Notes under the pieces: generated by a model | What the model was told of the DNA's origin: nothing | The model's input: the letters and a program-made list of their open reading frames with translations, nothing else | The model's database searches: none | DNA from: an uncultured Candidatus Saccharibacteria bacterium | GTDB taxonomy: Bacteria > Patescibacteriota > Doudnabacteria > UBA920 | NCBI GenBank assembly: GCA_964483665.1 | Contig: CAZACP010000008.1 | Location: 1-54,967 of the forward strand | Reading direction: 5' to 3' | Length of the DNA: 54,967 nt | In this document: positions 1 through 19,057 of the stretch, one piece after another | How positions within the stretch are numbered: position 1 is the first letter of the stretch | How the letters are laid out: each line of letters begins with the position of its first letter | Position numbers and translations under genes: made by a program

Positions 1-2187
1 AGCCTGTATATTTGCTACATGGCTTAAAATTCTGAGTTCTATTTGAGAATAATCGAGTGACAATAGCTTATAGCCTTTTTCCGCCACAAACGCTTTGCGT
101 ACTTGTGAGCCAAGCCCCTCGCCCCTAACAGGAATGTTTTGTAAATTTGGGTCGATTGACGATAAACGCCCCGTAGCCGCAATGGTTTGATTATAACTGG
201 TATGAAGCCTGCCGGTTTTTTTGTTCACCATTTCAGGCAGCGTGGTAAGGTAGGTACTGTAAAGCTTAGTTACTTCGCGATATTCTAATATTTTGGGAAT
301 TATGTCATGCTGGCCAAGCATTTTTTCTAAATTATCTGCCGAGGTAGAAACTCCGGTTTTGGTTCGTTTGTTGTTGGTGGCTTCCAGCTTAAGTTCGTCG
401 AACAAAACCTCCTTAAGCTGCTTTGGGGAATTTATATTAAATTCGCGTCCTGCTAGCTTGTGAATTTTGTTTTCTAAATCTTTAATGTCTATTTCCGCTT
501 CCCCGGCTAGCCTGTTTAAAAGTTTTACGTCCAGTTTAATGCCGTTTAATTCCACATCTGCCAAAACTTCCACCAAAGGCATTTCTATGTCTTCAAATAC
601 TTTTTTAAGCCCATTCTTTTTAAGTTCAGGCTCAAAAATTTCTTTAAGTCTTAGCGTCATATCTACATCTTCGCAGCAATACCAAGAAACTTTAGCAGGT
701 TCCACCTTGTCCATGGTAATTTGCTCTTTACCTTTGCCTATTAAGTCTGTAATAGGCTGCATCTGATAACCCAGTTCGTTAAAAGCAAGCGCGTCTAGTC
801 CATGTTGGCGAGTACCGGCGTTTAGTAGGTACGATGCGATCATGGTGTCAAAACTAGCAGTAAGTTGTAAGTTGTAAGTTGTAAGTACTTGCTTGTCGTA
901 CTTTATGTTGTGGCCTATTAACTTAACTTTACCCGATGTAAGCAGAGTTTTTAGTTCAGACGATGAAGTAAAAAGCTTTGTGGAAATATAAAAAGCCTTA
1001 CCTGGTTTTGCGCACAACCCTACACCCACTAATTCCGCAATAATTGGGTCAAGGCCTGTGGTTTCCGTGTCTACGCTTATTTCACTCGCGTTTGATAATT
1101 CTTTAATTGCCTCTTCTAATTTCTTTTCGTCATCAACAAAAATATAATTCTGCTTAGAAACAACCTCTCCCCTGCCCCTCTCCTCAGAAGGAGAGGGGTT
1201 TTCTAAATTTGTAACTTGCGGTCCTCTCCCCCCCTGCTTGTCCGCCGAAGCTTTAGCGAAGGAGGATAACTCGTCACCCGTCACCGTCTTAGGCAACTTA
1301 GAAAGCAAATTCCTAAACTCCAAACTCTGAAACAATTTAACTGTCTGAGCTAAATGCTCCTGGTCTAATTCATAAGCTTTAATTTCCGGGTCTATACCCG
1401 GCACGTCGCACACAATAGTAGAAAGCTCATACGACATTCTGGCCTGTGCTTCTTGTTCTAATAGAAGATTTAAAATTCTCTCCTTAATTTTTTTTCGTGC
1501 TTCGGATTTTGGATTTCGAATTTCTTTATACAATTCCTCAAAAGAATGAAATTTTTGAATAAGCTCGCTAGCAGTTTTCTCCCCAATTCCTTTCACGCCC
1601 GGAATGTTGTCCGAAGGGTCACCACGAAGAGCTTTGTAGTCCACCATCTGATCCGGGTTAAGTCCATAGCGCTCTCTGACAGCACGAGAATCATAAATTA
1701 CTGTGTCAGTAAGTCCTTTACGTGGAGTATAAATTTTTACTTTACCGTTAACCAGCTGCAAAGTGTCCATATCGCCGGTTAAAATAAATATCTCGGCCTT
1801 TTCGTGGCTTTTGTCATGAAAGTGTTTGGAAAGCGTGCCAAGTACGTCGTCCGCCTCATAGCCCTGCTTTTCGTATATCGGCACGTTCATTGCCCCTAAA
1901 ACTTCTTTTATAACCGGAATTTGGTCATATAAAGCCTGGTCTGCCTTTACCCTGGTTGCCTTATATTCCTTATATTTTTCATGCCTAAAAGTCGGGCCGG
2001 AAAGGTCAAAAGCCGCGGCTATATGCGTAGCTTTTATATCTTTTATGGCCTTCAAAAAAATGCTTAAAAACCCAAAAACCGCGCCGGTTGGCCTGCCATC
2101 TTTGGTAGTTAAAGTAGGCAAAGCGTGATAAGCCCTATGTACAAGCGCGTTACCATCTATTAACATGTAGCGTTCTTTTTGTTGCAT
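1..2187 (-). CDS. polA: DNA polymerase I (C-terminus runs off the left window edge)
   Basis: Manual translation from ATG at 2187: MQQKERYMLIDGNALVHRAYHALP...YEADD...GDPSDNIPGVKGIGEKTA (5'-3' exonuclease), SVDTETTGLD (3'-5' exonuclease), TGRLSSIDPNLQNIP and DYSQIELR (polymerase). Missing from the ORF track because no stop lies inside the window. Confidence 0.97.
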   Translation of the reverse strand, partial: MQQKERYMLIDGNALVHRAYHALPTLTTKDGRPTGAVFGFLSIFLKAIKDIKATHIAAAFDLSGPTFRHEKYKEYKATRVKADQALYDQIPVIKEVLGAMNVPIYEKQGYEADDVLGTLSKHFHDKSHEKAEIFILTGDMDTLQLVNGKVKIYTPRKGLTDTVIYDSRAVRERYGLNPDQMVDYKALRGDPSDNIPGVKGIGEKTASELIQKFHSFEELYKEIRNPKSEARKKIKERILNLLLEQEAQARMSYELSTIVCDVPGIDPEIKAYELDQEHLAQTVKLFQSLEFRNLLSKLPKTVTGDELSSFAKASADKQGGRGPQVTNLENPSPSEERGRGEVVSKQNYIFVDDEKKLEEAIKELSNASEISVDTETTGLDPIIAELVGVGLCAKPGKAFYISTKLFTSSSELKTLLTSGKVKLIGHNIKYDKQVLTTYNLQLTASFDTMIASYLLNAGTRQHGLDALAFNELGYQMQPITDLIGKGKEQITMDKVEPAKVSWYCCEDVDMTLRLKEIFEPELKKNGLKKVFEDIEMPLVEVLADVELNGIKLDVKLLNRLAGEAEIDIKDLENKIHKLAGREFNINSPKQLKEVLFDELKLEATNNKRTKTGVSTSADNLEKMLGQHDIIPKILEYREVTKLYSTYLTTLPEMVNKKTGRLHTSYNQTIAATGRLSSIDPNLQNIPVRGEGLGSQVRKAFVAEKGYKLLSLDYSQIELRILSHVANIQA
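860..886. repeat. (GTAAGTT)x~4 heptamer tandem repeat inside polA
   Basis: gtaagttgtaagttgtaagttgtaagt; encodes TYNLQLT in frame. Confidence 0.85.
1162..1198. repeat. CCCCTCTCC...GGAGAGGGG palindromic element inside polA
   Basis: cccctctcct-caga-aggagagggg hairpin (1175-1198); encodes NPSPSEERGRGEV; same family as 40343-40375. Confidence 0.8.
1240..1266. repeat. GTCCGCCGAAGCTTTAGCGAAGGAGGA palindromic repeat inside polA
   Basis: Near-identical to 49470-49496 and related to the core of 43915-43970; encodes SSFAKASADK. Confidence 0.85.
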
Positions 2188-2211
2188 AGTGACATTATAC
2201 CTAATAACAAA

Positions 2212-2247
2212 AAGATGGTCATCTTCTAGAAAGAAGATGGCCATCTT
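2212..2247 (-). terminator. Intrinsic terminator
   Basis: aagatggtcatcttct-agaa-agaagatggccatctt stem, followed by a T-run on the minus strand. Confidence 0.7.
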
Positions 2248-2258
2248 AAATTAGATTT

Positions 2259-2375
2259 TTAAGGATTCACTGTAATGATTGGACTTTTTGCCGCAGAAGT
2301 ATATCCGTCGTTAAGCAAGTACCTAAACTCATACTGACCAGCAACCGAGGGAGCCCAGGTGGCAAATGTTCCGCA
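2259..2375 (-). pseudogene. C-terminal fragment of a secreted Ig-like-domain protein
   Basis: Reads CGTFATWAPSVAGQYEFRYLLNDGYTSAAKSPIITVNP* with no start codon, then a terminator. Confidence 0.5.
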
Positions 2376-2381
2376 AGTAGC

Positions 2382-2648
2382 GGTTCAGAGTTTTCTCAGC
2401 ATTTTACCGAAAGAATTAAAATCACCCACAGACACAGCAGAGTTAGAAGACCAAATGATAACGCTCATTTAGAAAGGTTTAACAGGACTATCCAGCAGGA
2501 ACTAATCAGGGACTTACCGATTAATACAAGAGTCATTAACCGATTTATTCCCGCTTATCTGGACTACTACAACAATCAGCGATATCATCTAGGTATTAAC
2601 TTAAAAACACCGGCAGAAGTCATTAATTGTTTCCAAGGTATTGTTTAG
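2382..2648 (+). mobile_element. IS481/IS3-type DDE transposase C-terminal remnant
   Basis: Reads GSEFSQHFTERIKITHRHSRVRRPNDNAHLERFNRTIQQE...YLDYYNNQRYHLGINLKTPAEV...*, a typical rve integrase core end; N-terminus missing. Confidence 0.8.
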
Positions 2649-2687
2649 AAAACGTAGTAAACAATAAAAAACCGCATATTTGTACGG

Positions 2688-2724
2688 TTACAGATTACGA
2701 ATTTATTACAGATATACAGATTCG
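2688..2724. repeat. Downstream inverted arm of the GxxExxY element
   Basis: ttacagattacgaatttattacagatatacagattcg; complementary to 3114-3146. Confidence 0.8.
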
Positions 2725-2729
2725 AGCGA

Positions 2730-3113
2730 CTAACGAATGTTTACTATTCTTTTAAACCTTGCTCCATCTTTACCAAAATGTACTAGCACACCCAATTTTA
2801 AATTTAATGCTTTTAAATAGTTTAAGGTCTGATCAATATTGTCACGAGAAAAGTGTGTATCGCGCTTTATTTCTAAAACTAGCTTATCTTCAATTAAAAA
2901 ATCCAAAAAATACTTTCCTATTGAAATAGATTTATAATCTAAATTTACTGCATACTGCTCAACAAATTTTACCCCTCTCTGTTTAAACTCTTCAGCCAAA
3001 GCTTTTTGATAATGCTTCTCTAAAAGCCCTGAACCCAAATTATTATGCACCTCAAAAATCGCACCAATTACTTTTCTTGTTAAGTCTCCATAAATTAAAT
3101 CATTTTCATTCAT
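2730..3113 (-). CDS. GxxExxY protein (PD-(D/E)XK-like family)
   Basis: MNENDLIYGDLTRKVIGAIFEVHNNLGSGLLEKHY...DFLIEDKLVLEIK; start placed at ATG 3113, directly after the repeat arm. Confidence 0.9.
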   Translation of the reverse strand: MNENDLIYGDLTRKVIGAIFEVHNNLGSGLLEKHYQKALAEEFKQRGVKFVEQYAVNLDYKSISIGKYFLDFLIEDKLVLEIKRDTHFSRDNIDQTLNYLKALNLKLGVLVHFGKDGARFKRIVNIR

Positions 3114-3146
3114 AAGTATCCGTATATCCGTAACAAATCTGTAATC
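3114..3146. repeat. Upstream inverted arm of the GxxExxY element
   Basis: aagtatccgtatatccgtaacaaatctgtaatc; complementary to 2688-2724. Confidence 0.8.
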
Positions 3147-3154
3147 CTTAACCA

Positions 3155-4798
3155 TTACTCTCCAGCGACTCTAAACACCTCTTCCACATCTGTTATACCT
3201 TCTAAGGCTTTAAGTAGCCCATCTTGCGCCATAGTCAGCATACCCTGCTCAATGGCGGTTTTTTTAAAATCCGACATAGAGGCTTCTTTGTTTATTAAAT
3301 TTTGTATGGCCTCGGTAACTTCCAAAACTTCGTAAATGCCAATGCGGCCTTTATAGCCAAGGTTATTGCATTTTTCGCAGCCCGGGCTGCGAAAAAATTG
3401 CAAATCTTTTGGCTGGCTGTAATCTTTGGGCATTTGGCTAAAAATCAGCTTAATTCTTTCCATTAGCTGCGGGGAAATTTTTGTCGGAGTTTTACAATCC
3501 TGGCAAATTCTGCGCACTAAACGCTGCGCCATCACGCAGGACAAAGCCGGCGAAACAATAAACGGTTTTACGCCCATATTTATAAGCCGCGGGATTGCGC
3601 CTGCCGCGTCATTGGTATGAAGCGTGGAAAGCACCAAGTGTCCGGTTAATGCTGCCTGCATGGCCACTTCCGCTGTTTCCTGGTCGCGTATTTCTCCCAC
3701 CATTACTATGTCCGGATCTTGCCTTAAAATGGCTCTTAGGCCCTTGGCAAAATTAAAATCTACATTGTGGTCTATGGGCGTTTGCACAATGCCTTCTAAT
3801 TTATATTCCACCGGATCTTCCAAGGTAATAATTTTCACCCCCGGCTCGTTTAACTCGTTTAAAAATGCGTAAAGACTGGTGGTTTTTCCGCTGCCGGTCG
3901 GACCCGTAGTAATAACCATTCCATTGGGACGCTGGAGTATTTTTTCCACAATTTCTTTTTGTTCTTGTCTAAAACCCAAAGAGTCTAATTTTAACTCAGA
4001 GTTGTTGTTGCCAAGCAATCTCATAACCACTTCTTCGCCGTAAGCTGAAGGCAAAACCGAAACGCGCACGTCTATTGGCCCGCCTAAATAAGTAAAAGTA
4101 ATACGGCCGTCCTGCGCCTGGTTTTCTACATTTAGTTTTAATTTGGCTAAAATTTTTATGCGCGTAATTATTTGCCTTTGCAAACTTTTGTTTATATGCA
4201 GCATATCCTGCAAAACTCCGTCTATGCGGTAGCGCAGTTTTAGAAAATGCTCTTCCGGTTCTAAATGTATGTCCGAGGCTCTAAGCAAAACAGCTCCGCC
4301 AAAAAAGATTTCTAAAAATTGGCTGGCAGTGGTTGTAAGCTGCAAATTTTCTTCTGCTAAAGCCTTTAACTGCTTGGTAAAATCTTGCTCTTTTTTTACG
4401 TCTATAGCTTCGTCGTGGGTAGCTTTAGGTCTTAAAACTTTGCTATAAAATTTTAAAGTTTTTTCCAAACTCCTTTTAGAAATTATATACAAAGTAACCT
4501 TGTTGTCTTGCGACAACTCGCGAATTTTTTCTAAAAGCAACGGGTGCTTAGGGTTAACCGTGCCGATTCTTAAATCTTTAAGCTCTTTATAAAAAGGCAC
4601 AGCCAGCATTTCTTTAGCTTCTTCTTCCAAAAAAATTCCCAAAACATTTAAATCCACGGGAAAATTATGCAAATCTACGTAAGGCAAACCCAAAGCCGCG
4701 GCCGCGCTTTGGGCCTGCTGCTCTTCCATTTTGCGGTTAACTTCGTCCATGCTTCGAACCAAATCGGCCGGGGTTTGAGCGAGAAAATTTTTACTCAT
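3155..4798 (-). CDS. GspE/PilB-family type II secretion/type IV pilus ATPase
   Basis: ASDIHLEP, GPTGSGKTT Walker A, LRQDPDIVMVGEIRD, TGHLVLSTLH, Zn-binding CxxC pairs. Confidence 0.95.
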   Translation of the reverse strand: MSKNFLAQTPADLVRSMDEVNRKMEEQQAQSAAAALGLPYVDLHNFPVDLNVLGIFLEEEAKEMLAVPFYKELKDLRIGTVNPKHPLLLEKIRELSQDNKVTLYIISKRSLEKTLKFYSKVLRPKATHDEAIDVKKEQDFTKQLKALAEENLQLTTTASQFLEIFFGGAVLLRASDIHLEPEEHFLKLRYRIDGVLQDMLHINKSLQRQIITRIKILAKLKLNVENQAQDGRITFTYLGGPIDVRVSVLPSAYGEEVVMRLLGNNNSELKLDSLGFRQEQKEIVEKILQRPNGMVITTGPTGSGKTTSLYAFLNELNEPGVKIITLEDPVEYKLEGIVQTPIDHNVDFNFAKGLRAILRQDPDIVMVGEIRDQETAEVAMQAALTGHLVLSTLHTNDAAGAIPRLINMGVKPFIVSPALSCVMAQRLVRRICQDCKTPTKISPQLMERIKLIFSQMPKDYSQPKDLQFFRSPGCEKCNNLGYKGRIGIYEVLEVTEAIQNLINKEASMSDFKKTAIEQGMLTMAQDGLLKALEGITDVEEVFRVAGE

Positions 4799-6247: not shown

Positions 6248-6631
6248 ATGCACACAAGCTTAGACCAAATCCCCGCTTTGGCAAAAAAAATTGCCTCAGG
6301 CATAAAAGGCGGAGAAATATTCGCACTTGTTGGAACCTTAGGTAGCGGTAAAACGACTTTTACTCAGGCTTTAGGCAAACAGCTGAAAATAAAACACCAC
6401 ATTACCAGCCCAACCTTCGTTATAATGAATAGGTACCCCTTTAAGCAAAAAACGCCAATGCATTTGTATCACCTAGACCTTTACAGAATAAAAAGTTTTA
6501 AGGACGTAAAAGCTTTGGGCTTAACGGAAATCTGGAACCAAAAAAATAACGTTATAATTATAGAGTGGGCGGACAAAATAAAAAAGCATTTGCCCAAAAA
6601 AACTAAAAAAATTTATTTTAACCAGCCATAA
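6248..6631 (+). CDS. tsaE: t6A biosynthesis ATPase TsaE
   Basis: GTLGSGKTTF, ITSPTF, YHLDLYR, IIEWAD. Confidence 0.95.
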   Translation: MHTSLDQIPALAKKIASGIKGGEIFALVGTLGSGKTTFTQALGKQLKIKHHITSPTFVIMNRYPFKQKTPMHLYHLDLYRIKSFKDVKALGLTEIWNQKNNVIIIEWADKIKKHLPKKTKKIYFNQP

Positions 6632-6695
6632 TTAAAATTCCGTTGCCCAGACAAAATCTAAAACCCTGCTTTTTAGTTCTCTGAATAACCATAAA

Positions 6696-7922
6696 ATGAA
6701 ATATAAATTAATATTAACAATTATTTTACTTGGTCTGCCTTTAACCGGGCGCGCGGCTAACACGCCGGCGGGTCTTTCCGCTGGCCAAGATTTTGTAATT
6801 AATTTTAACGAACAAACTTTTAAATTGCCGGCTGATCAGCTTAGCAAACTAAAAGGCTCCTACCAAATACCTAAAAACAGCAATTTAATTTACAAAACCT
6901 CTACCCAGGAAGAACTGGCGTCGGGATTTTTAAGCGGCCAACTACCAAGCCCAAAAATTGAGACAGTAGTTTTTAGTTTTGATCCGGCCGGTATTTATAA
7001 ATTTGTAACGCAAACAGCCAATGCAGTTGCTAAAAATCCGGTAGAGCCCAGGTTAACAATCCAAAACAATTTTGCAATAGACTTCGCTCCCCCGTCTGAC
7101 GGCATTTTTGTCGACGCTTCGGCCAATACTTTAAAAATTTTAACCGCGCTACAAAACAAGCAAACTTCGCTGGATTTAATTTTTTCCACCTCCAGCCCCA
7201 AAACCCGCCTTTCGGGTACGAATAATTTAGGCATAAACGAACTTATTGCAACAGGTGTTAGCAATTTTAAAGGAAGCCCCTCAAACCGGCGCCACAACAT
7301 AAAAGTTGGCGTGCAAAAATTTAAAGGCCTAATTATAAAAAAGGGAGAAGAATTTAGTTTTAACAAATATTTGGGTCCGGTAGAAGAAGAGCAGGGTTTT
7401 TTGCCGGAATTGGTTATTAAAAAAACAGGCACAGTACCGGAACTTGGCGGCGGGCTATGCCAAGTTTCCTCCACCACTTTTAGAGCCGCAATGGAAGCAG
7501 GATTGCCCATAACCCAAAGAAAAAATCACGCTTACGCCGTGCAATACTACTCTCCTCAAGGCACAGACGCGACCATTTACCCCGGAATTGTGGATTTAAA
7601 ATTTAAAAACGACACTCCGGGAGCAATTTTAGTCTGGCCGCATTTTGAGGCCGGCGACACTTTAATTTTTGACTTCTACGGCAGTAAAGACAATCGGGTT
7701 GTAACTTTGGAAAAGCCCAGGCAATACGACAGAAAACCTGACGGCAGTTTAAAGGCAGAGTGGACACGGATTGTCGAAAAAGACGGAGTAATTTCTTCCT
7801 CCACTTTTAAATCTATTTACCAGCCCCCGGCACTGTTCCATAAAGAAGAAACTTTTGTTACCGCTCCGCCCACTGGCGGACCCACCCCAACACCCGCTCC
7901 TAGCCCAACGCCAACTTTGTAA
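6696..7922 (+). CDS. VanW-family protein with signal peptide and Pro/Thr-rich tail
   Basis: GEEFSFNKYLG, GGGLCQVSSTTFRAA, GTDATIY, DLKFKNDT. Confidence 0.9.
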   Translation: MKYKLILTIILLGLPLTGRAANTPAGLSAGQDFVINFNEQTFKLPADQLSKLKGSYQIPKNSNLIYKTSTQEELASGFLSGQLPSPKIETVVFSFDPAGIYKFVTQTANAVAKNPVEPRLTIQNNFAIDFAPPSDGIFVDASANTLKILTALQNKQTSLDLIFSTSSPKTRLSGTNNLGINELIATGVSNFKGSPSNRRHNIKVGVQKFKGLIIKKGEEFSFNKYLGPVEEEQGFLPELVIKKTGTVPELGGGLCQVSSTTFRAAMEAGLPITQRKNHAYAVQYYSPQGTDATIYPGIVDLKFKNDTPGAILVWPHFEAGDTLIFDFYGSKDNRVVTLEKPRQYDRKPDGSLKAEWTRIVEKDGVISSSTFKSIYQPPALFHKEETFVTAPPTGGPTPTPAPSPTPTL

Positions 7923-7928
7923 TAAATC

Positions 7929-7960
7929 AAACGCGGAAACGAACAAACGTTTCCGCGTTT
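7929..7960. terminator. Bidirectional terminator between vanW and the convergent cargo genes
   Basis: aaacgcggaaacg-aacaaa-cgtttccgcgttt. Confidence 0.8.
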
Positions 7961-7974
7961 TTTAGTTTTCTTTC

Positions 7975-8322
7975 CTATTTCGGATGAAGTCGGTGATGTT
8001 TCTGCCCCTGACAATACCAATGCCCAGGACCGTAAACCACTCTATGAGCGAGCACCCACCCCCCGTCGGCCAAGACAGCTAAAACAAAGACGGGCACCAA
8101 AACAAGCAAAAACTTCCTGCTTAAAGCAACGCCAATATATTCCCTGTGGCCAACCCAGGGGTTTATAGAAAACAGGAACAACCACAAAGCGATTATTCCA
8201 ATAAAACCCAATACCACCTGAGTCCTAGGCATTGTGTCAATGGAAAAAGTTCTCCACCACACACGATAAAACGACACCGAAGCCGTAAGAGCCAAAGCAA
8301 GCATCAAGGTAATACTTTTCAT
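7975..8322 (-). CDS. Hypothetical membrane protein (cargo of trmB-1)
   Basis: 115-aa ORF with about 3 hydrophobic segments; SD GGGGAGG upstream. Confidence 0.7.
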   Translation of the reverse strand: MKSITLMLALALTASVSFYRVWWRTFSIDTMPRTQVVLGFIGIIALWLFLFSINPWVGHREYIGVALSRKFLLVLVPVFVLAVLADGGWVLAHRVVYGPGHWYCQGQKHHRLHPK

Positions 8323-12089: not shown

Positions 12090-12103
12090 CCGGCCTTGTT
12101 TTT
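12077..12103 (+). terminator. Terminator T1, overlapping the stop codon; duplicated at 13673-13699
   Basis: aaaacaaggcctaaccggccttgtttt. Confidence 0.85.
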
Positions 12104-12151
12104 AGTTGCCCTATCTGCCCCATAAGTCCTATCAATACTTATGCCAAATTT

Positions 12152-12189
12152 AAACCACGCTCGCAAGTTTTTCACTCGCGGCGTGGTTT
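12152..12189 (-). terminator. Terminator of the beta-barrel-like cargo gene
   Basis: aaaccacgc...gcgtggttt. Confidence 0.6.
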
Positions 12190-12205
12190 TGTAATGCATA
12201 ATGGA

Positions 12206-12739
12206 TCATTTCTTGACCCACCTAATTGCGAAAATTACATTGATACGATTACGTTCAAACATCGGCGCCCCCCATAAAAACAATGGCGTGTAGGGAATTT
12301 TGTATTCTACCCTTGGACCAGTGCCCTTGTAGCGTTCGGTAAGAATACCGACTCTGAGCGATTTTGACACTTTTCTATTCAACTCGGTCTTCAACCAAAA
12401 CCCGCTGCCACCATATTCGGGAATAAATAAGACCGATGTTTTAGCATTACCCATCCAAACAAATCCTCCTGCCCGAGCCGGGTTCTTGGCCTCCTCTATC
12501 CCAACACCGCCTGCGAGCTGTAGCCAAGGCTTTGGGTCGTAGGTTAGTCCGCCGTAGCTTTCACTGTAGCCTTCTTGGGTTTGGAACCAAACAAACGCTC
12601 CGAGCTTCCCCGAAAGCCTTCCAGTAATCAACCCGTCGATCCTCGGTGTAACGCTGCCCGATGATACGAAAGTTCGTTGCTCAACCCACGTTTGCGCGAT
12701 TGCGGCGCAAGAAACTAACATCGCAAATAATAGCTTCAT
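12206..12739 (-). CDS. Secreted protein with amphipathic beta-strand pattern, possibly a beta-barrel (cargo of trmB-2)
   Basis: Start MKLLFAMLVSCAAIAQ at 12739 after SD GGAGG; about 10 alternating-pattern strands. Confidence 0.7.
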   Translation of the reverse strand: MKLLFAMLVSCAAIAQTWVEQRTFVSSGSVTPRIDGLITGRLSGKLGAFVWFQTQEGYSESYGGLTYDPKPWLQLAGGVGIEEAKNPARAGGFVWMGNAKTSVLFIPEYGGSGFWLKTELNRKVSKSLRVGILTERYKGTGPRVEYKIPYTPLFLWGAPMFERNRINVIFAIRWVKK

Positions 12740-12878
12740 AGATCCTCCGAACGAGATTCTTGTTAGCCAGCATCCTAGCGTAACCAGCAATAATGCCAAA
12801 AAAATGCATTAGTGTCAATAATTTATAGTCAAAAATAAATAAAATTGCTAAAATTAATCACAAATAAAGCAATAAAAC

Positions 12879-12897
12879 TGTTGATAGTTTTTCAACA
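12879..12897. promoter_or_regulatory. Candidate operator TGTTGA-N7-TCAACA over the trmB-2 -35 box
   Basis: tgttga tagtttt tcaaca; promoter TTGATA-17-TATTAT ends 6 nt before the ATG. Confidence 0.7.
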
Positions 12898-12915
12898 ACA
12901 TGTTATTATTTTGCC

Positions 12916-13686
12916 ATGATACCAGAACTCCTAAAACAACTTGGTTTTGGCGACAAGGAAATTGTGGTTTACACCACATTGCTTCAGCATGGCAAACTTA
13001 CTCCCGCGGCTTTGGGCAGGATTGCCAAAATAAATCGAACCACCGTTTACAGCACGGCTAAAGAGCTGGTGCAAAAAGGCGTAATTGCCGAAGACTTAGG
13101 CGGAGCTAATTTGTATTTGGTGGCAAAACCACCGTCAGATTTAGACAACTTATTAAAAAAAGAGGAAAAGCAGTTGCAAGAAAAAAAAGTCATAATAAAA
13201 AACGCCATAGAAGAACTCCAAGGCATTACAAAAGCCACACAGTACACTATCCCTAAAATTATTTTTAAAGCTCAGGAAGAAGTCGAAGCTCACCTTTATG
13301 AACAAACTCCTAAATGGGACGAGAGTATTTTAAAATACGATGGTATTTGGTGGGGCTTTCAGGATCACACTTTTGTCCAGCATTACGAAAAATGGATAGA
13401 TTGGTACTGGCAAACCGGTTCGAATCCGGCAACGAAGTTAAAACTTTTAAGTAACGAGGTTGCAGAAAAAATTAAAAAGACCAAATATGAAAGAAGGCAA
13501 ATTTCTTTTTGGAAAGAAAGCCATAACTTTAAAACCACCACCTGGATACTGGGCGACTACGTTGTTATGATAGTCACAAATCAGCGCCCGCACTATTTAG
13601 TGGAAATTCACGACGCAACGCTTGCCCACGACCAACGAGAAGTCTTTAAAGGTATTTGGAAAACACAAATAGAAAACAAGGCCTAA
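12916..13686 (+). CDS. TrmB-family transcriptional regulator (paralog 2)
   Basis: wHTH LGFGDKEIVVY...INRTTVY; C-terminal domain clearly paralogous to 16320-17090. Confidence 0.88.
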   Translation: MIPELLKQLGFGDKEIVVYTTLLQHGKLTPAALGRIAKINRTTVYSTAKELVQKGVIAEDLGGANLYLVAKPPSDLDNLLKKEEKQLQEKKVIIKNAIEELQGITKATQYTIPKIIFKAQEEVEAHLYEQTPKWDESILKYDGIWWGFQDHTFVQHYEKWIDWYWQTGSNPATKLKLLSNEVAEKIKKTKYERRQISFWKESHNFKTTTWILGDYVVMIVTNQRPHYLVEIHDATLAHDQREVFKGIWKTQIENKA

Positions 13687-13699
13687 CCAGCCTTGTTTT
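13673..13699 (+). terminator. Terminator T1', copy of 12077-12103
   Basis: aaaacaaggcctaaccagccttgtttt, 26/27 identical. Confidence 0.85.
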
Positions 13700-13710
13700 G
13701 TTTTTTTGTG

Positions 13711-13736
13711 AGTAACTATTCGCGCGAATAGTTACT
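13711..13736. repeat. Perfect loop-less 26-bp palindrome
   Basis: agtaactattcgc|gcgaatagttact. Confidence 0.9.
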
Positions 13737-13762
13737 AGAATAAGTGTTTTTATTTTTCTTCT

Positions 13763-13864
13763 TTAACTTTTCCAAACAGGTTTAAACCTACTTAGAAAAA
13801 TTCCCGAGTAGTGACAGAGCCACTTTATAGCCTCTCGGGATAGGCGGTTTGGGGAGCGATTCAT
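13763..13864 (-). pseudogene. Short SD-led ORF after the ABC ATPase, possibly a truncated next gene of the donor operon
   Basis: GGGGAG SD, then MNRSPNRLSREAIKWLCHYSGIFLSRFKPVWKS*. Confidence 0.35.
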
Positions 13865-13880
13865 TGTTCTACTCCCCTTG

Positions 13881-14624
13881 TTAAAGCTTTCCGGGCATAA
13901 CGCGTCGGAGGAATTCTTGTGTTCGCGGGTGCTGAGGACTGCCCAGCACCGCATTCGCCGCACCGCTCTCAACAACGTGGCCGTGGTCAAGAAAAATTGC
14001 CTGGTTAGCAATCTCTTTGGCAAACCCAATATGGTGAGTTGCCATTACCACGGTCGTACCGGTTGATACTACGTCTTTGACCACATCAAGCAATTCCCAG
14101 ACAAGTTCCGGGTCAAGCGCGGAGGTGATTTCGTCGAGAAGCAGAACTTTGGGCTGTATTGCCATAGCCCGCGCGATTGCTACTCGCTGAGCTTGACCGC
14201 CGGAAAGAGTTGCTGGATAAGCATTTTCTTTTTCCGACAGCTTGACCTTGATAAGCAGTTCGCGCGCGCGGCCTTCGGCTTCAGAACGCCTCATTTTCAG
14301 AATCTGTGTGGGCCCTAGCGTGAGGTTTTCCAAAACCGTTAGGTGTGGCCAGAGGTTTAATCCTTGGAACACCATGCCTACGCGCTGACGCAGTAGTCCA
14401 TTGACCTTAGAGCCAGGCGTGATCTGGAATTCTCCGTCTAGAAGACGAATTGCCCCGGAGTCAATCGGCGTAAGGCCGTTTAAGCAACGAAGAAGTGTTG
14501 TTTTGCCGGAGCCACTGGGTCCAACCAGGGCGAGAACCTGACTCCTCTCGAGTCCGAACGATATTTTGTTCAGTACCTGGAGCTGACTAAAGCTCTTTGA
14601 CACCGAACTTACTTCAACTAACAC
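13881..14624 (-). CDS. Polar amino acid ABC transporter ATP-binding protein (GlnQ-like)
   Basis: GPSGSGKTT, LSGGQAQR, LLLDE; GTG start at 14624. Confidence 0.93.
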   Translation of the reverse strand: MLVEVSSVSKSFSQLQVLNKISFGLERSQVLALVGPSGSGKTTLLRCLNGLTPIDSGAIRLLDGEFQITPGSKVNGLLRQRVGMVFQGLNLWPHLTVLENLTLGPTQILKMRRSEAEGRARELLIKVKLSEKENAYPATLSGGQAQRVAIARAMAIQPKVLLLDEITSALDPELVWELLDVVKDVVSTGTTVVMATHHIGFAKEIANQAIFLDHGHVVESGAANAVLGSPQHPRTQEFLRRVMPGKL

Positions 14625-15255
14625 GAAAAACCTTCCTTTCCAGCCGCCTAACTGAATATTCAAGCGGCAGAATGATTGCTAAATAGAGAATCGCAAGAGT
14701 TGTGTAAACCTCAAACGACTGTTGCGTTAGGGCAATTATACTTCCGCCCCTGTTCAGCAATTCTGCAACACCAATAGTCGACGCCAAAGACGTCAGCTTA
14801 ATGGTTGTGACATACTCGCCAAACAGGTTAGGCAGCATATTTCGTAAGGCCTGTGGTAAAACTATATACCACAAAACCTGCCGAGAATTCATGCCCATTG
14901 AAAGTGCGGATTCACGCTGAGAAACTGAAACCGATTCCAGCCCCGCGCGAATGTTCTCCGCGTAAAAAGCCGCGCCGTTTAAAGCAAGGCCTACAGCAGA
15001 AGAAAAAAACGCCGAGAAAGCAACTCCGGTCAGCATCGGCAAGCTGTAGTAAATCCAGAGCAATACCACCAGTGGCGGTACTGCGCGAAAAGCCACAACA
15101 TACCCGACGACAAGAGCCCGCAATACCACAAACCGATAACTCTGAACCCAAACTAGCGTGACACCAAGAATCGTGCCAAACATAACCGCTAGGCACGACA
15201 GCCCCACGGTAGTGAGCAGGCCATAGAGCCAGGCCTGCCAAAACTGAAACAACAT
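14614..15255 (-). CDS. Polar amino acid ABC transporter permease
   Basis: AENIRAGLESVSVSQRESALSMGM (EAA loop), IVLPQALR. Confidence 0.93.
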   Translation of the reverse strand: MLFQFWQAWLYGLLTTVGLSCLAVMFGTILGVTLVWVQSYRFVVLRALVVGYVVAFRAVPPLVVLLWIYYSLPMLTGVAFSAFFSSAVGLALNGAAFYAENIRAGLESVSVSQRESALSMGMNSRQVLWYIVLPQALRNMLPNLFGEYVTTIKLTSLASTIGVAELLNRGGSIIALTQQSFEVYTTLAILYLAIILPLEYSVRRLERKVFRVS

Positions 15256-15266
15256 ATCTTTTCCTT

Positions 15267-16082
15267 TCAACGAATGTCCGATTGCCAGTTAGCGCCGTAC
15301 TTCTCTTCTAACTGTTTAAGTACGCCGCGAGTCTTAAGAAAGTGAAGCGAGGTGTCTAAAAACCGCAGCCAGTCCGGGTCACCGTAACGAACCGCGAACG
15401 AAGCCGGATTTAAGGCGAACTGCTTTTTTGCAAACAAATCCACCAAGTCGCTGCGGGTGGCTGCAAACTTTGCGATTTGATTGCTGTCAGCAATTGCCAC
15501 ATCGGCGTTGCCCGTAACCACATCGAGCATAAATCGCGAAATCTCTGCGGCCTCAACATTGGTACGGTTGAGCGTAGCCTTCTTGAACTCGGCGGTGGCA
15601 AACAAGTCGCCCGCTTCGCCTGTTGCCAAAACCACCCTTACCCCTGGCTGGTCAAAATCGGAAATCAGACCGAATTTCTCAAATCTGCTTCCGCGCCTAA
15701 CCAAAGCACTAAGTCCCATGTACAACACCGGTTGAGTAAACGCGATTGATTGAGCTCTCTCGATATTAGCAAACATAGGAGCCACAATTACATCCGCGCG
15801 TGCCGACTGCAAGGTTGCGGCCGCATTGCCATAGGTGGTTTCCGTCCACTCGATGCGTGCATTCATGCGCTCGGCGATAATTTCCATCGCCTCGACCAAA
15901 TGCCCGCTATATTCTCCGGTAGTCGCGTTCTTAATGACCATAGGAGAATCTATGACCGTAGCCGCACGGATAACGCGTGTGCGCCGCACTTGGTCGAAAA
16001 TTGACTCCCCCTGCTGCCCCGTTCTGGCGCAACCAGAAAGAATCAAAAATGACACCAAAACTAACAAAAGAATTCTATTCAT
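15267..16082 (-). CDS. Polar amino acid ABC transporter substrate-binding lipoprotein (SBP family 3)
   Basis: Lipobox LSGC; IERAQSIAFTQP; SD GGGAGG before the ATG at 16082. Confidence 0.9.
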   Translation of the reverse strand: MNRILLLVLVSFLILSGCARTGQQGESIFDQVRRTRVIRAATVIDSPMVIKNATTGEYSGHLVEAMEIIAERMNARIEWTETTYGNAAATLQSARADVIVAPMFANIERAQSIAFTQPVLYMGLSALVRRGSRFEKFGLISDFDQPGVRVVLATGEAGDLFATAEFKKATLNRTNVEAAEISRFMLDVVTGNADVAIADSNQIAKFAATRSDLVDLFAKKQFALNPASFAVRYGDPDWLRFLDTSLHFLKTRGVLKQLEEKYGANWQSDIR

Positions 16083-16193
16083 TGTGCCCTCCCTTGGGCT
16101 TGTCAAAGTTCTCTGTTCCGCAAAATAACGGAAAGGTTATTGTTATATTTAACTGTCACAATAACCAAGTATAATACCATATTTTCAACAATA

Positions 16194-16300
16194 TGTCAAT
16201 AATAATTCAACAATTTCCTTAATTTTGCTTTAAACAAAAGTAAAAATATTGTTGATTAAACTTCAACAAATATAAATTTGTTGTTGACAATTAATCAACA
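16194..16300. promoter_or_regulatory. Divergent promoters with three TGTTGA-N7-TCAACA-type operators
   Basis: Perfect sites at 16250-16268 and 16282-16300, a variant at 16194-16212. trmB-3 promoter TTGACA(16284)-17-TATAAT(16307); cargo promoter TTGACA(16199-16194)-17-TATTAT on the minus strand. Confidence 0.75.
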
Positions 16301-16319
16301 TTTTGCTATAATATGAAAT

Positions 16320-17090
16320 ATGATAGCAAACTTACTTAAAAATTTTGGTCTAAACGAAAAAGAGGCTCAAATTTACTTGGCAGTTTTAAAACAAGGTAGG
16401 GCTGCGCCTGCCCATATTGCACAAGTTACTAAAATAAACCGCACCACGGTTTACAGCGTGGCTAAAGAGCTTATAAAAAAAGGCTTTTTGCTTGAAGACC
16501 TGGCAGGGGGGAGCACTTCGCTAGTTGCGGTTCCACCTCAGGAATTAAAATTCTTGGTTCAAAAAGAAGAAAAGGAGCTGGAAAATAAAAAGCAGCTCAT
16601 AAGCCAAATGGTTAAGGAGCTGGAAAATTTTACCAAAGATTCCAAATACGCCATTCCTAAAATTACTTTTATACAAGAACAGGACTTAATGGATTACTTA
16701 TATAAACGCGGTGATGAGTGGCATAAAAGCATTATGAAGTACGACGGCATACTGTGGGGTTTTCAGGACCATACCTTTGCCGAACATTATGAAAAGTGGA
16801 TAGAGTGGGAGTGGAAAATTGGAGGGCCGAAAGATTTACGCCTGAGACTTTTTTCCAACGAGTCCGAAATCGAAGAAAAGAACAAACAAAAAGGCAAAGA
16901 GTTTGAAAGGCGTATAATAAAATACTGGAAAAAACCAAACCAATTTACTGCTTCTGTTTGGGTGCACGGGGATTATTTAGTTTTTGTCCAAACTCAAAGC
17001 CGGCCTCATTATTTAGTGGAAATTTATGATGTCTTGTTAGCCGAAAATATGAGGCAATTTTTTGCTGGCGTGTGGGATGAAATAAAATAA
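16320..17090 (+). CDS. TrmB-family transcriptional regulator (paralog 3)
   Basis: FGLNEKEAQIY...INRTTVY; shares MKYDGILWGFQDHTF-type motif with paralog 2. Confidence 0.88.
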   Translation: MIANLLKNFGLNEKEAQIYLAVLKQGRAAPAHIAQVTKINRTTVYSVAKELIKKGFLLEDLAGGSTSLVAVPPQELKFLVQKEEKELENKKQLISQMVKELENFTKDSKYAIPKITFIQEQDLMDYLYKRGDEWHKSIMKYDGILWGFQDHTFAEHYEKWIEWEWKIGGPKDLRLRLFSNESEIEEKNKQKGKEFERRIIKYWKKPNQFTASVWVHGDYLVFVQTQSRPHYLVEIYDVLLAENMRQFFAGVWDEIK

Positions 17091-17099
17091 CTTTTCAAT

Positions 17100-17153
17100 C
17101 ATGACCAACGAGAAGTCTTTAAAGGCATTTGGAAAACACAAATAGAAAAATAA
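17100..17153 (+). repeat. Orphan copy of the trmB-2 3' end (HDQREVFKGIWKTQIEK*)
   Basis: 48/50 identical to 13627-13676; both differences synonymous. Confidence 0.9.
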
Positions 17154-17188
17154 AAAGACCGGCGGACACACATTTCCGCCGGTCTTTT
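17153..17188. terminator. Bidirectional terminator
   Basis: aaaagaccggcgga-cacacatt-tccgccggtctttt. Confidence 0.85.
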
Positions 17189-17192
17189 TATT

Positions 17193-18338
17193 TTATGCTT
17201 TTAGTTCCACCTCGCTTGGGGAAACGGGCATTATTACCACGTCAAAACCTTCTTCTCTTAAGCTGGTATAAATTCTATTAAATTCAACTTCTTGCATACG
17301 TTCTTCTGGCGCTTCGGTTAGTAGCGGACGAAGCTGTATTACTGTATTTTCTGGTCCAAACCCCTTTTGTTTAAAAACCTCGGGTCTTATTTCCGTTTCA
17401 TTATTGCACACAAAAGTTAAGGTTGGTTTTCTAACTGTTTTATAGCCTTTATTTATTTGCGCATCCACAATTTGTTGGAACTGCTCAGCTATTTCATTCA
17501 GTGGCAACAATAATTTTTCCATCCTATTTCCTTTATGCTCCTCAGTCTCACCTGGCTTATCCGGTCGTTGATTATACACATGCAAAGCGCGCTTTTCTTC
17601 GTTAGTGCTCTGAGCAGAAACCTGGACACTTATTACCGGCTCCCCATTATAATCTGGACTGCTATAAATATCAGCAACAACCTGCATAGGGGTCTTTCTG
17701 TCTTTATTGACTTTTCCCGCAACAGTAGAAATTCTCACCCTTGAAATTGTGTTGCTAAAATCTTTACAAACCATTTCCAAAATATCTTTTAAATGAGGAT
17801 TAGGAGTCGCGTCACCACTCCCAACAAAAGCAATGCCAAATTTCTTTCCCTCTAGCAAAGGACTAACCTTTTTAGCTTCCCTCAAGCTTTCTTCTATTAA
17901 AAGCCTTATTTCTTTTGGACTTAACTCCTTGGTCTTTTTACCTTCATGTCCTTCTGCGTGAGCCGCAAAAGGACACCCCTTGCAATCATATGGGCATATC
18001 CCCCCCTGCAGGGGTAAAAGCAATGTTGGAGAGTTTTTATCTATATAAGCTTCTATGACAGCCCTTCCGTTTTCGGGATCATTTTTATAATTAAATAGTT
18101 CCCAAGCTGCCTTGGACTTTAAGCTCCTTACCCCTGTATAACCGGCCATAACCGCGGTTGAATAATGCAAATGCTGAACATCCCCTGAGCCAGACCTGGT
18201 TTCTTTTTCGTGCCAGCGCATCAAAACACTGTCATCGATAGAAAATTTTTCTATGGCCTCTTCCCCGTCTTTTAGCTGTATTGTCTCAGAATGCGCTGGG
18301 CTATCGCTAATAATTTTAAATTCTGGATGTTCCTTCAT
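17193..18338 (-). CDS. Radical SAM protein, RlmN/Cfr-like scaffold lacking the catalytic cysteines
   Basis: CPYDCKGC (CxxxCxxC); motif order matches RlmN by eye; start overlaps the rsmE stop. Confidence 0.75.
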   Translation of the reverse strand: MKEHPEFKIISDSPAHSETIQLKDGEEAIEKFSIDDSVLMRWHEKETRSGSGDVQHLHYSTAVMAGYTGVRSLKSKAAWELFNYKNDPENGRAVIEAYIDKNSPTLLLPLQGGICPYDCKGCPFAAHAEGHEGKKTKELSPKEIRLLIEESLREAKKVSPLLEGKKFGIAFVGSGDATPNPHLKDILEMVCKDFSNTISRVRISTVAGKVNKDRKTPMQVVADIYSSPDYNGEPVISVQVSAQSTNEEKRALHVYNQRPDKPGETEEHKGNRMEKLLLPLNEIAEQFQQIVDAQINKGYKTVRKPTLTFVCNNETEIRPEVFKQKGFGPENTVIQLRPLLTEAPEERMQEVEFNRIYTSLREEGFDVVIMPVSPSEVELKA

Positions 18339-19057
18339 TGGTTTAAAAAATTACTTATAATGCTTAAGCTCGACAACGCGGCGGTTTCGGCTCTTAAAAG
18401 TATAGGACCTAAAGTTATTGGCGTGCAGTTAGGAAGCTTTTTAAAACCACCCACCTCCTCTACTGTAAAGCCACCTTCCGGACCCACAGCGATTGAACAA
18501 GATTTAAATGATTGATCAAGATTTTTTGGTGACTGTCCGGCAATGTCACAAAGAAACAATTGACCGTATTCTTTTGAAGATTTTATTACATCATCGACGC
18601 TCTTTAGATACTCCAATTCTGGTGGATGAACACGGTCGCTTTGTTTGGCTGCTTCCCAAAGAATTTTTTGCCAGCGGTCGTTCTTTTTTTTAAAAAGTTC
18701 TTCGGTTAATTTAGTAGCTGTGTTTTGAGAGTTAAACAAAATTATTTTATGTGCGCCAAGCTCGGTAGATTTTTGGAATATAAAGTCCAAGGCTTTTTCA
18801 TTAACATAGCCTTGAAACAGAGTAATTTTAACCTTTGGTTCCGGCGGCGTTTTTATTTCGCTAAAGGCTTTTAATTTCAAAGAATATCTATCTATATCTA
18901 TAATTTCTACCAAATATCTTTTCTCGTCTTTCCCCTGCAAATTAAATTTTTCGCCCTTCTTCATTCTGCGGGCAAGCAAAATATGCCTGGCCTCATCGCC
19001 AGACAATTCAACACTTGCTCCTTCTGCTAGCTTTTGATCTGTTAAAAAATAAGACAC
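18335..19057 (-). CDS. rsmE: 16S rRNA m3U1498 methyltransferase RsmE
   Basis: EARHILLARR, QKSTELG, EAAKQS, VGPEGGF, LGPILLRAETA. Confidence 0.95.
   Translation of the reverse strand: MSYFLTDQKLAEGASVELSGDEARHILLARRMKKGEKFNLQGKDEKRYLVEIIDIDRYSLKLKAFSEIKTPPEPKVKITLFQGYVNEKALDFIFQKSTELGAHKIILFNSQNTATKLTEELFKKKNDRWQKILWEAAKQSDRVHPPELEYLKSVDDVIKSSKEYGQLFLCDIAGQSPKNLDQSFKSCSIAVGPEGGFTVEEVGGFKKLPNCTPITLGPILLRAETAALSSLSIISNFLNQ

Follow-up and report, generated by a model that had tools for sequence, protein, structure and literature searches.

A radical SAM protein with a predicted RlmN/Cfr-like fold and without the two cysteines of the methyl synthases, encoded behind rsmE in an uncultured bacterium

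RlmN, Cfr and the radical SAM gene of the window

RlmN and Cfr are the textbook example of radical SAM catalysis relying on two cysteines of the protein, and the ping-pong course of their methyl-synthase reaction is established knowledge. RlmN, the C2 methyl synthase of A2503 in 23S rRNA and of A37 in tRNA, uses Cys118 as the resolving and Cys355 as the methyl-carrying residue, and Cfr has C105 and C338. The exchanges C105A and C338A in Cfr abolish resistance (PMC2836569), and RlmN C355 and Cfr C338 are given as essential in a Cfr structure paper, which also describes the protein of PDB entry 6FZ6 as a class A methyltransferase sharing 37% identity with Cfr (PMC12887959). The gene described here belongs to a clade that keeps the scaffold of these enzymes and has lost both cysteines.

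This gene occupies positions 17193-18338 on the minus strand of the window, by which is meant the whole stretch of 54,967 nucleotides analysed, and its translation yields a radical SAM protein of 381 amino acids, whose AlphaFold2 model has an RlmN/Cfr-like fold. All features within the gene are on the minus strand. The CxxxCxxC motif predicted to bind a [4Fe-4S] cluster (17973-17996, with the codons TGC, TGC and TGT) has the spacing C115-x3-C119-x2-C122 in the translation, and the GSGD stretch at residues 173-176 (17811-17822) is, by conservation and by alignment to RlmN, the counterpart of the GMGE SAM-binding motif. The earlier note had listed the cluster motif together with further motifs in the order known from RlmN, and this was indeed confirmed by hhalign, which aligns the same pairs to E. 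coli RlmN: SPTLLLPLQGGIC with RATLCVSSQVG-C, VGSGDATPN with MGMGEPLLN, RVRISTVAG with RVTLSTSG, and VSAQSTNEEKR with ISLHAPNDEIR, so that GSGD, STVAG and QVSxH of the family face RlmN motifs. On sequence grounds, the window protein is shown to be a radical SAM protein with the cluster motif and with counterparts of the RlmN SAM motifs (GSGD, S204/T205, S241 and R250).

Database models recognise the protein poorly. The Pfam Radical_SAM model (PF04055) scores 28.1 bits in hmmscan against a cut-off of 29.5; searching the genome gave 28.9 bits, which rises to 30.3 on in-frame combination. Searches of NCBIfam, PHROGs and PDB sequences returned no match, the best PDB entry being BioB at E=1, and the NCBIfam models of RlmN and Cfr gave no match at E<=1. 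TIGR00048 (RlmN) finds nothing in the genome, and RlmN_N (PF21016), the HhH-like RNA-binding domain, has no Pfam match in the protein.

Several observations concern the genomes in which such searches were made. In the 1.1-Mb genome, no radical SAM protein other than that of the window was detected; a second match to PF04055, considered as a paralog, is FtsZ. Among the relatives G001-G048, radical SAM proteins are sporadic in the order, with PF04055 above its cut-off in 15 of 31 genomes, and the recurrent sub-threshold matches (profile positions 22-155, ORFs of about 400 amino acids) resemble the FtsZ of the window genome, so that FtsZ probably accounts for them as false positives. The window genome further encodes only one stand-alone class-V aminotransferase similar to cysteine desulfurases (C1:47449-48585), with no scaffold gene beside it, and searches of the genome for the SufB/D core and for NifU_N/IscU-type scaffolds revealed none.

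Both mechanistic cysteines are missing from the window protein. With C115, C119 and C122 aligned to RlmN C125, C129 and C132, the position of the resolving Cys118 is taken by Leu107 (18018-18020) in hhalign and MAFFT alignments alike, as the earlier note had read it; close homologs all have this leucine, and in the wider set it is almost invariant. At the other end, the chain closes with EVELKA and a stop codon (17193-17210) where RlmN has IDAAC355GQL. MAFFT sets RlmN residues 350-357 (IDAAC355GQ) against a gap, the window protein ending at VELKA381; in an ungapped reading, the final residue Ala381 falls on Cys355. The last cysteine of the protein is C311, hence neither alignment offers a counterpart, and the reported absence of an AACGQL segment stands. 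Since neither cysteine is present, the class A methyl-synthase mechanism is not usable by the window protein and methyl transfer of the RlmN/Cfr type is excluded for it, which supports the earlier proposal of a different radical chemistry.

A graded loss is seen among the relatives. RlmN has both cysteines, and phage-type proteins keep the C-terminal cysteine of a CG[QNM] motif, mostly without the Cys118 equivalent. At the far end of the series, a sister group (A3) retains the C-terminal loop without its cysteine, in TGQL or AGIL-type sequences with Thr, Ala or Gly in its place, and the subfamily of the window protein stops at the loop.

Predicted fold, conservation and descent

The AlphaFold2 model of the window protein, built from 14 homologs, reached a pLDDT of 82.2 and a pTM of 0.85. 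When VIA-align was run over the top 1000 Foldseek matches, the model aligned with 6FZ6 at Z 19.0 (rmsd 3.8, 270 residues aligned) and with RlmN 5HR7 at Z 18.6 (rmsd 3.6, 266 residues aligned), the E. coli RlmN chains covering Z 16.9-18.6, and the best family outside class A was TYW1 with Z 12.3. An exhaustive structure search of 48,161 representatives, independent of Foldseek, returned the same order, with 6FZ6 at Z 18.6, Cfr (9P0P) at Z 16.2 and the next family at 11.6. Many radical SAM structures align at Z 8-12, as against about Z 19 for class A, and the resemblance of the predicted fold to RlmN exceeds chance when Z 19.0 and 18.6 are set against 12.3. By HMM and structure comparison, the protein is closest to the class A methyl synthases; the earlier note had left room for a place in a characterised radical SAM family other than RlmN, and no such clustering was found, with all other families at Z 12.3 or below.

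The protein shares with RlmN (TIGR00048; PDB 3RFA, 5HR7) the partial-barrel core, the N-terminal beta extension and the C-terminal strands, matching at Z 17-19 over about 260-270 residues at only 13-17% identity, together with the order of motifs and a common arginine (R250, RlmN R242). However, the structural alignments begin at RlmN residue 74-79, so the HhH-like N-domain of RlmN has no counterpart, and the Cys355 loop and the C-terminal tail of RlmN are likewise absent, while the window family carries extra insertions at residues 68-100 and 255-276. The best structural matches are Cfr (9P0P, Z 16.2) and the Sphaerobacter class A methyltransferase (6FZ6, Z 19.0). Like Cfr, the window gene is a stand-alone accessory gene moving between genomes; equivalents of the two Cfr cysteines are lacking.

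Direct hhalign comparison with a single RlmN sequence is weak (probability 9.7%). A bridge is provided by short RlmN-like proteins of phages and CPR bacteria (profile A7): the profile of the family (A2) matches theirs with a probability of 99.3% (E 1.2e-20), and theirs matches E. coli RlmN with 99.0% (E 8.6e-18), the CGQ cysteine motif included. Through this bridge between profiles, the predicted homology of the family to RlmN becomes firm. These short proteins (phrog_24834; P0036, Bacteroides phage Versailles, Stenotrophomonas phage ANB28 and L020 of genome G266) are the nearest sequence relatives outside the clade. In them, too, the RlmN N-domain is missing, as is in most cases the Cys118 equivalent, and they have a QxS motif in common with the window family; they give weak scores with the NCBIfam RlmN/Cfr models and keep the C-terminal CG[QNM] cysteine, whereas the window family has lost it.

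The sister group (P0020-P0034, P0038-P0043) has the same fold and the same loss of both cysteines at 23-29% identity. Q239, S241, R250, R337, P371 and a nearly invariant E378 are common to both groups; the sister group differs by a shorter N-terminus, by keeping the C-terminal loop without its cysteine, and by the lack of Cys311 and of the YATAIMPGY and AWxLFNYKN motifs of the CPR subfamily. The model of one sister-group member (pLDDT 88.8) aligns with RlmN and 6FZ6 at Z 24.0, as compared with 13.9 for the next family, and extends through RlmN residue 362-363, and the entire cysteine-less clade accordingly has the predicted RlmN fold.

Conservation is high where binding of the cluster and of SAM is predicted. 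The 14 homologs, with 47-91% identity and lengths of 375-386 amino acids, share 82 invariant columns, which include the cluster motif, GSGDAT, RxxxST, QVS, R250 and C311 as well as RKP, QxRP and the C-terminal MPV-PS-VEL. The cluster motif is invariant in these 14 close and in 21 wider homologs, and invariance in the wider set covers C115, C119, C122, G175, S204, Q239, S241, R250, F309, R337 and P371, with D176 nearly invariant. Among these residues, G175/D176, S204, S241 and R250 align with RlmN G179/E180, S213, S233 and R242. Such strong constraint on the cluster and SAM motifs suggests that the 5'-deoxyadenosyl radical is most likely still made. One deviation is found in the window copy itself, in which residue 243 is Gln, as opposed to the histidine of RlmN (H235) and of most family members; this exchange could weaken the binding of SAM.

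Cys311 (17406-17408) lies at the end of the predicted core strand beta5, which spans residues 306-311 in the model, and aligns to RlmN M281. Apart from those of the cluster motif it is the sole conserved cysteine; it is invariant in the close CPR subfamily (A1) only and is replaced by V, L, T or H in the sister group. Being limited to one subfamily, it is not a general catalytic residue of the clade; within the CPR subfamily it may be a candidate donor of a hydrogen atom.

Genomic setting and distribution

The upstream neighbour of the radical SAM gene is rsmE (18335-19057, minus strand), a member of the 16S rRNA U1498 N3-methyltransferase family with matches to PF04452 (1.5e-41), PUA_4 and TIGR00046 (179 bits), and the order on the minus strand is dnaA, dnaN, recF, dciA, rsmE and the radical SAM gene. 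The reported overlap of the start codon with the rsmE stop is present: the ATG (18338-18336) and the TGA (18337-18335) share the ATGA at 18335-18338 on the minus strand. Terminator prediction gave no site at the junction of the two genes, and a bidirectional intrinsic terminator, with a stem of 20 pairs on both strands (17147-17194), is common to the radical SAM gene and a convergent trmB-like gene. In the window genome, the gene is probably co-transcribed with rsmE and translationally coupled to it.

This arrangement was seen neither in the relatives nor at the other loci read. Against the nearest genome, G002 of the same genus, blastn and junction alignment delimit an inserted block at 17150-18378: window positions 16102-17150 correspond to 6257-7303 and positions 18378-19009 to 7349-7980 of the G002 locus L014, leaving about 1.2 kb unique to the window between collinear flanks. 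In G002, the stops of the convergent trmB-like gene and of rsmE are 64 bp apart; its RsmE is 78% identical by protein alignment, and differences at the last three or four codons set the 3' end of the window rsmE apart. The radical SAM gene was not found in 60 relatives, of which three belong to the same genus and a further 33 to the same family, and the relatives without it, including the three same-genus genomes, keep rsmE. Thus, the partnership with rsmE is not conserved, an outcome that the earlier note had named as refuting its reading; the gene is a recent, clean insertion behind rsmE, and the coupling there is probably an accident of insertion.

A further difference from G002 is observed nearby, where window positions 12102-16102 have no full counterpart. 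An amino-acid ABC transporter is encoded here on the minus strand (ATPase 13881-14663, permease 14614-15270, binding protein 15267-16106) in a cassette (13750-16100) of about 50% GC, as compared with about 38% around it, situated between two trmB-like paralogs (12916-13686 and 16320-17090). Within the region, a 55-bp element (13791-13845) is 100% identical to G002 (5983-6037 of L014), in flanking synteny of about 79%; it contains a CCCGAG...CTCGGG stem, and gave neither a tRNA with ARAGORN nor a credible Rfam match.

Homologous loci have quite different surroundings. In a Saccharibacteria MAG (L001), a divergent small ORF lies upstream, followed by malic enzyme, aspartate ammonia-lyase and asparaginase; in a Nomurabacteria MAG (L002), argH and a cytosine-deaminase-like amidohydrolase precede the gene on the same strand; and on a metagenome contig (L003/L004), PAP2 lies upstream and a chromate transporter downstream. 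Genes of amino-acid and nitrogen metabolism occur in two of the four gene contexts. An all-against-all comparison of ORFs of at least 40 amino acids around the four loci revealed no conserved neighbour and no RiPP precursor, its matches being the radical SAM gene itself and two Lyase_1 paralogs; the latter were rejected as a common neighbour, since aspA and argH are different paralogs, 26% identical. With unrelated upstream genes at the three other loci, an RNA substrate deduced from the coupling to rsmE is not borne out, and the suggested tie to rsmE and ribosome modification is not supported.

The family is very rare. The close family matched 16 clusters among 5.8 billion and the sister-group profile 14 clusters, while a search of 1.84 billion matched 23 representatives, most of them from the distant sister group; the wider profile searches (A2, A3) returned no named or characterised member and no cluster with a meaningful name. 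Close homologs occur in only two other GTDB species representatives, and 400 sampled genomes of the phylum gave two distant matches, one phage-type with the CG motif (L020) and one a SPASM-type enzyme, which was set aside as unrelated to the family. No match to the protein was found by tblastn in 50,697 phage records, and a scan of viral contigs with the sister-group profile found no relatives. As far as the loci read show, the gene travels by itself among distant CPR lineages, and no partner was seen.

Possible chemistry, substrate and alternatives

The favoured reading, which we regard as probable, is that of an enzyme of the radical SAM type, stand-alone and with one [4Fe-4S] cluster, derived from RlmN/Cfr and performing a non-methylating chemistry. 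An RlmN/Cfr ancestor would have lost the resolving cysteine, the methyl-carrier cysteine with its ACGQL loop and the N-terminal RNA-binding domain, and the motifs suggest that reductive cleavage of SAM would have been retained. The 5'-deoxyadenosyl radical would then act directly on the substrate by abstraction of a hydrogen atom; the substrate would sit where RlmN has its Cys355 loop, and because this loop is gone, the radical could reach it directly. The outcome would be a non-methylating transformation, and Cys311, placed at the top of strand beta5, is a candidate for quenching the radical of the product. Movement of the gene alone and without a partner points to a target present in any cell, which is probably a common metabolite, a nucleotide or RNA. 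As to the class of substrate, a small molecule or nucleotide is tentatively preferred, RNA is possible though somewhat unlikely, and a protein is doubtful.

The main competing explanation is a non-methylating enzyme that modifies rRNA or tRNA, its operon with rsmE reflecting a common role in ribosome maturation. It is consistent with descent from RNA methyl synthases and with the occurrence of genes for related phage proteins within phage tRNA clusters, as in Stenotrophomonas phage ANB28; a stand-alone gene without partner would also fit a universal target such as the ribosome, and the ATGA overlap, with no terminator between the genes, is present in the window. However, adjacency to rsmE is missing in all three other loci and in the relatives, the gene being an insertion, and the RlmN N-terminal domain is absent both as a match to RlmN_N and from the structural alignments. 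The mostly acidic character of the family (pI 5.3-7.7) points the same way, though weakly, as E. coli RlmN has 6.56. Such an enzyme is accordingly rated as rather unlikely, and decidedly unlikely is the fuller version in which the whole cysteine-less clade would be an RlmN-derived class whose radical directly modifies an RNA nucleotide of rRNA or tRNA by a non-methyl reaction and which was recruited into the rsmE operon for ribosome maturation.

The remaining explanations are considerably weaker. That an RlmN-like gene is here decaying into a relic or has lost its catalytic function might be suspected from the loss of both catalytic cysteines and of two domains, the sub-threshold Pfam score and the H243Q change in the window copy, but is very unlikely given an intact frame, a conserved length, the 82 columns invariant in 14 homologs down to 47% identity, the recurrence of the same pattern in the sister group at 23-29% identity and two confident models. 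Retention of methyl-synthase chemistry with cysteines supplied in trans by a separate small peptide is highly improbable, even though the window protein ends almost exactly where such a peptide would begin. Neither the surroundings of the gene in the window nor four homolog loci (L001, L002, L003 and L005) yielded a CG[QNM] ORF or any separate cysteine peptide; the sole AACGQLL of the 1.1-Mb genome (C5:24387), tried as a split-cysteine peptide, is a chance match out of frame inside a 792-aa ORF for a secreted protein; in the sister group the loop belongs to the same chain, where Thr, Ala or Gly replaces Cys; and the Cys118 position is lost as well. Scarcely credible is a salvage enzyme similar to queuine lyase (QueL), to which a structural neighbour in the Atlas fused to QueT and a nucleoside phosphorylase, a QueF-like gene 1.6 kb downstream in L003 and a Tgt encoded in the genome might point: the gene has no queuosine gene in its vicinity in the window, L001 or L002, and the solved queuine lyase 6P78 ranks only 47th, at Z 7.4 (rmsd 5.4, 211 residues aligned), as compared with 16-19 for RlmN and Cfr.

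A non-methylating radical SAM enzyme of RlmN/Cfr descent would give enzymology a defined target in the cysteine-less clade. With the phage relatives added, this clade completes a natural series from two cysteines to one to none, in which the scaffold would be reused for another chemistry. The practical weight is limited by the great rarity of the family, whose few dozen sequence clusters all stem from uncultured organisms, and evidence of a link to antibiotics was not found for the window family.

Two of the phage-type relatives have gene surroundings of their own. In Stenotrophomonas phage ANB28 (L023, 3621-8939), the gene annotated as RlmN has Cys118-like and CGQL cysteines and lies inside a phage tRNA cluster (tRNA-Ile, Pro, Leu, Thr and Ser). 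In L020 (G266:C1:732254-735808, at 1429-3552), a phage-type RlmN-like protein of 297 amino acids, which keeps the C-terminal NCG cysteine and has no Cys118 equivalent, appears to be encoded in one operon with a thioredoxin-reductase-like flavoprotein and a hydrolase of the isochorismatase family, an arrangement that matches an Atlas cluster of isochorismatase-radical SAM fusions.
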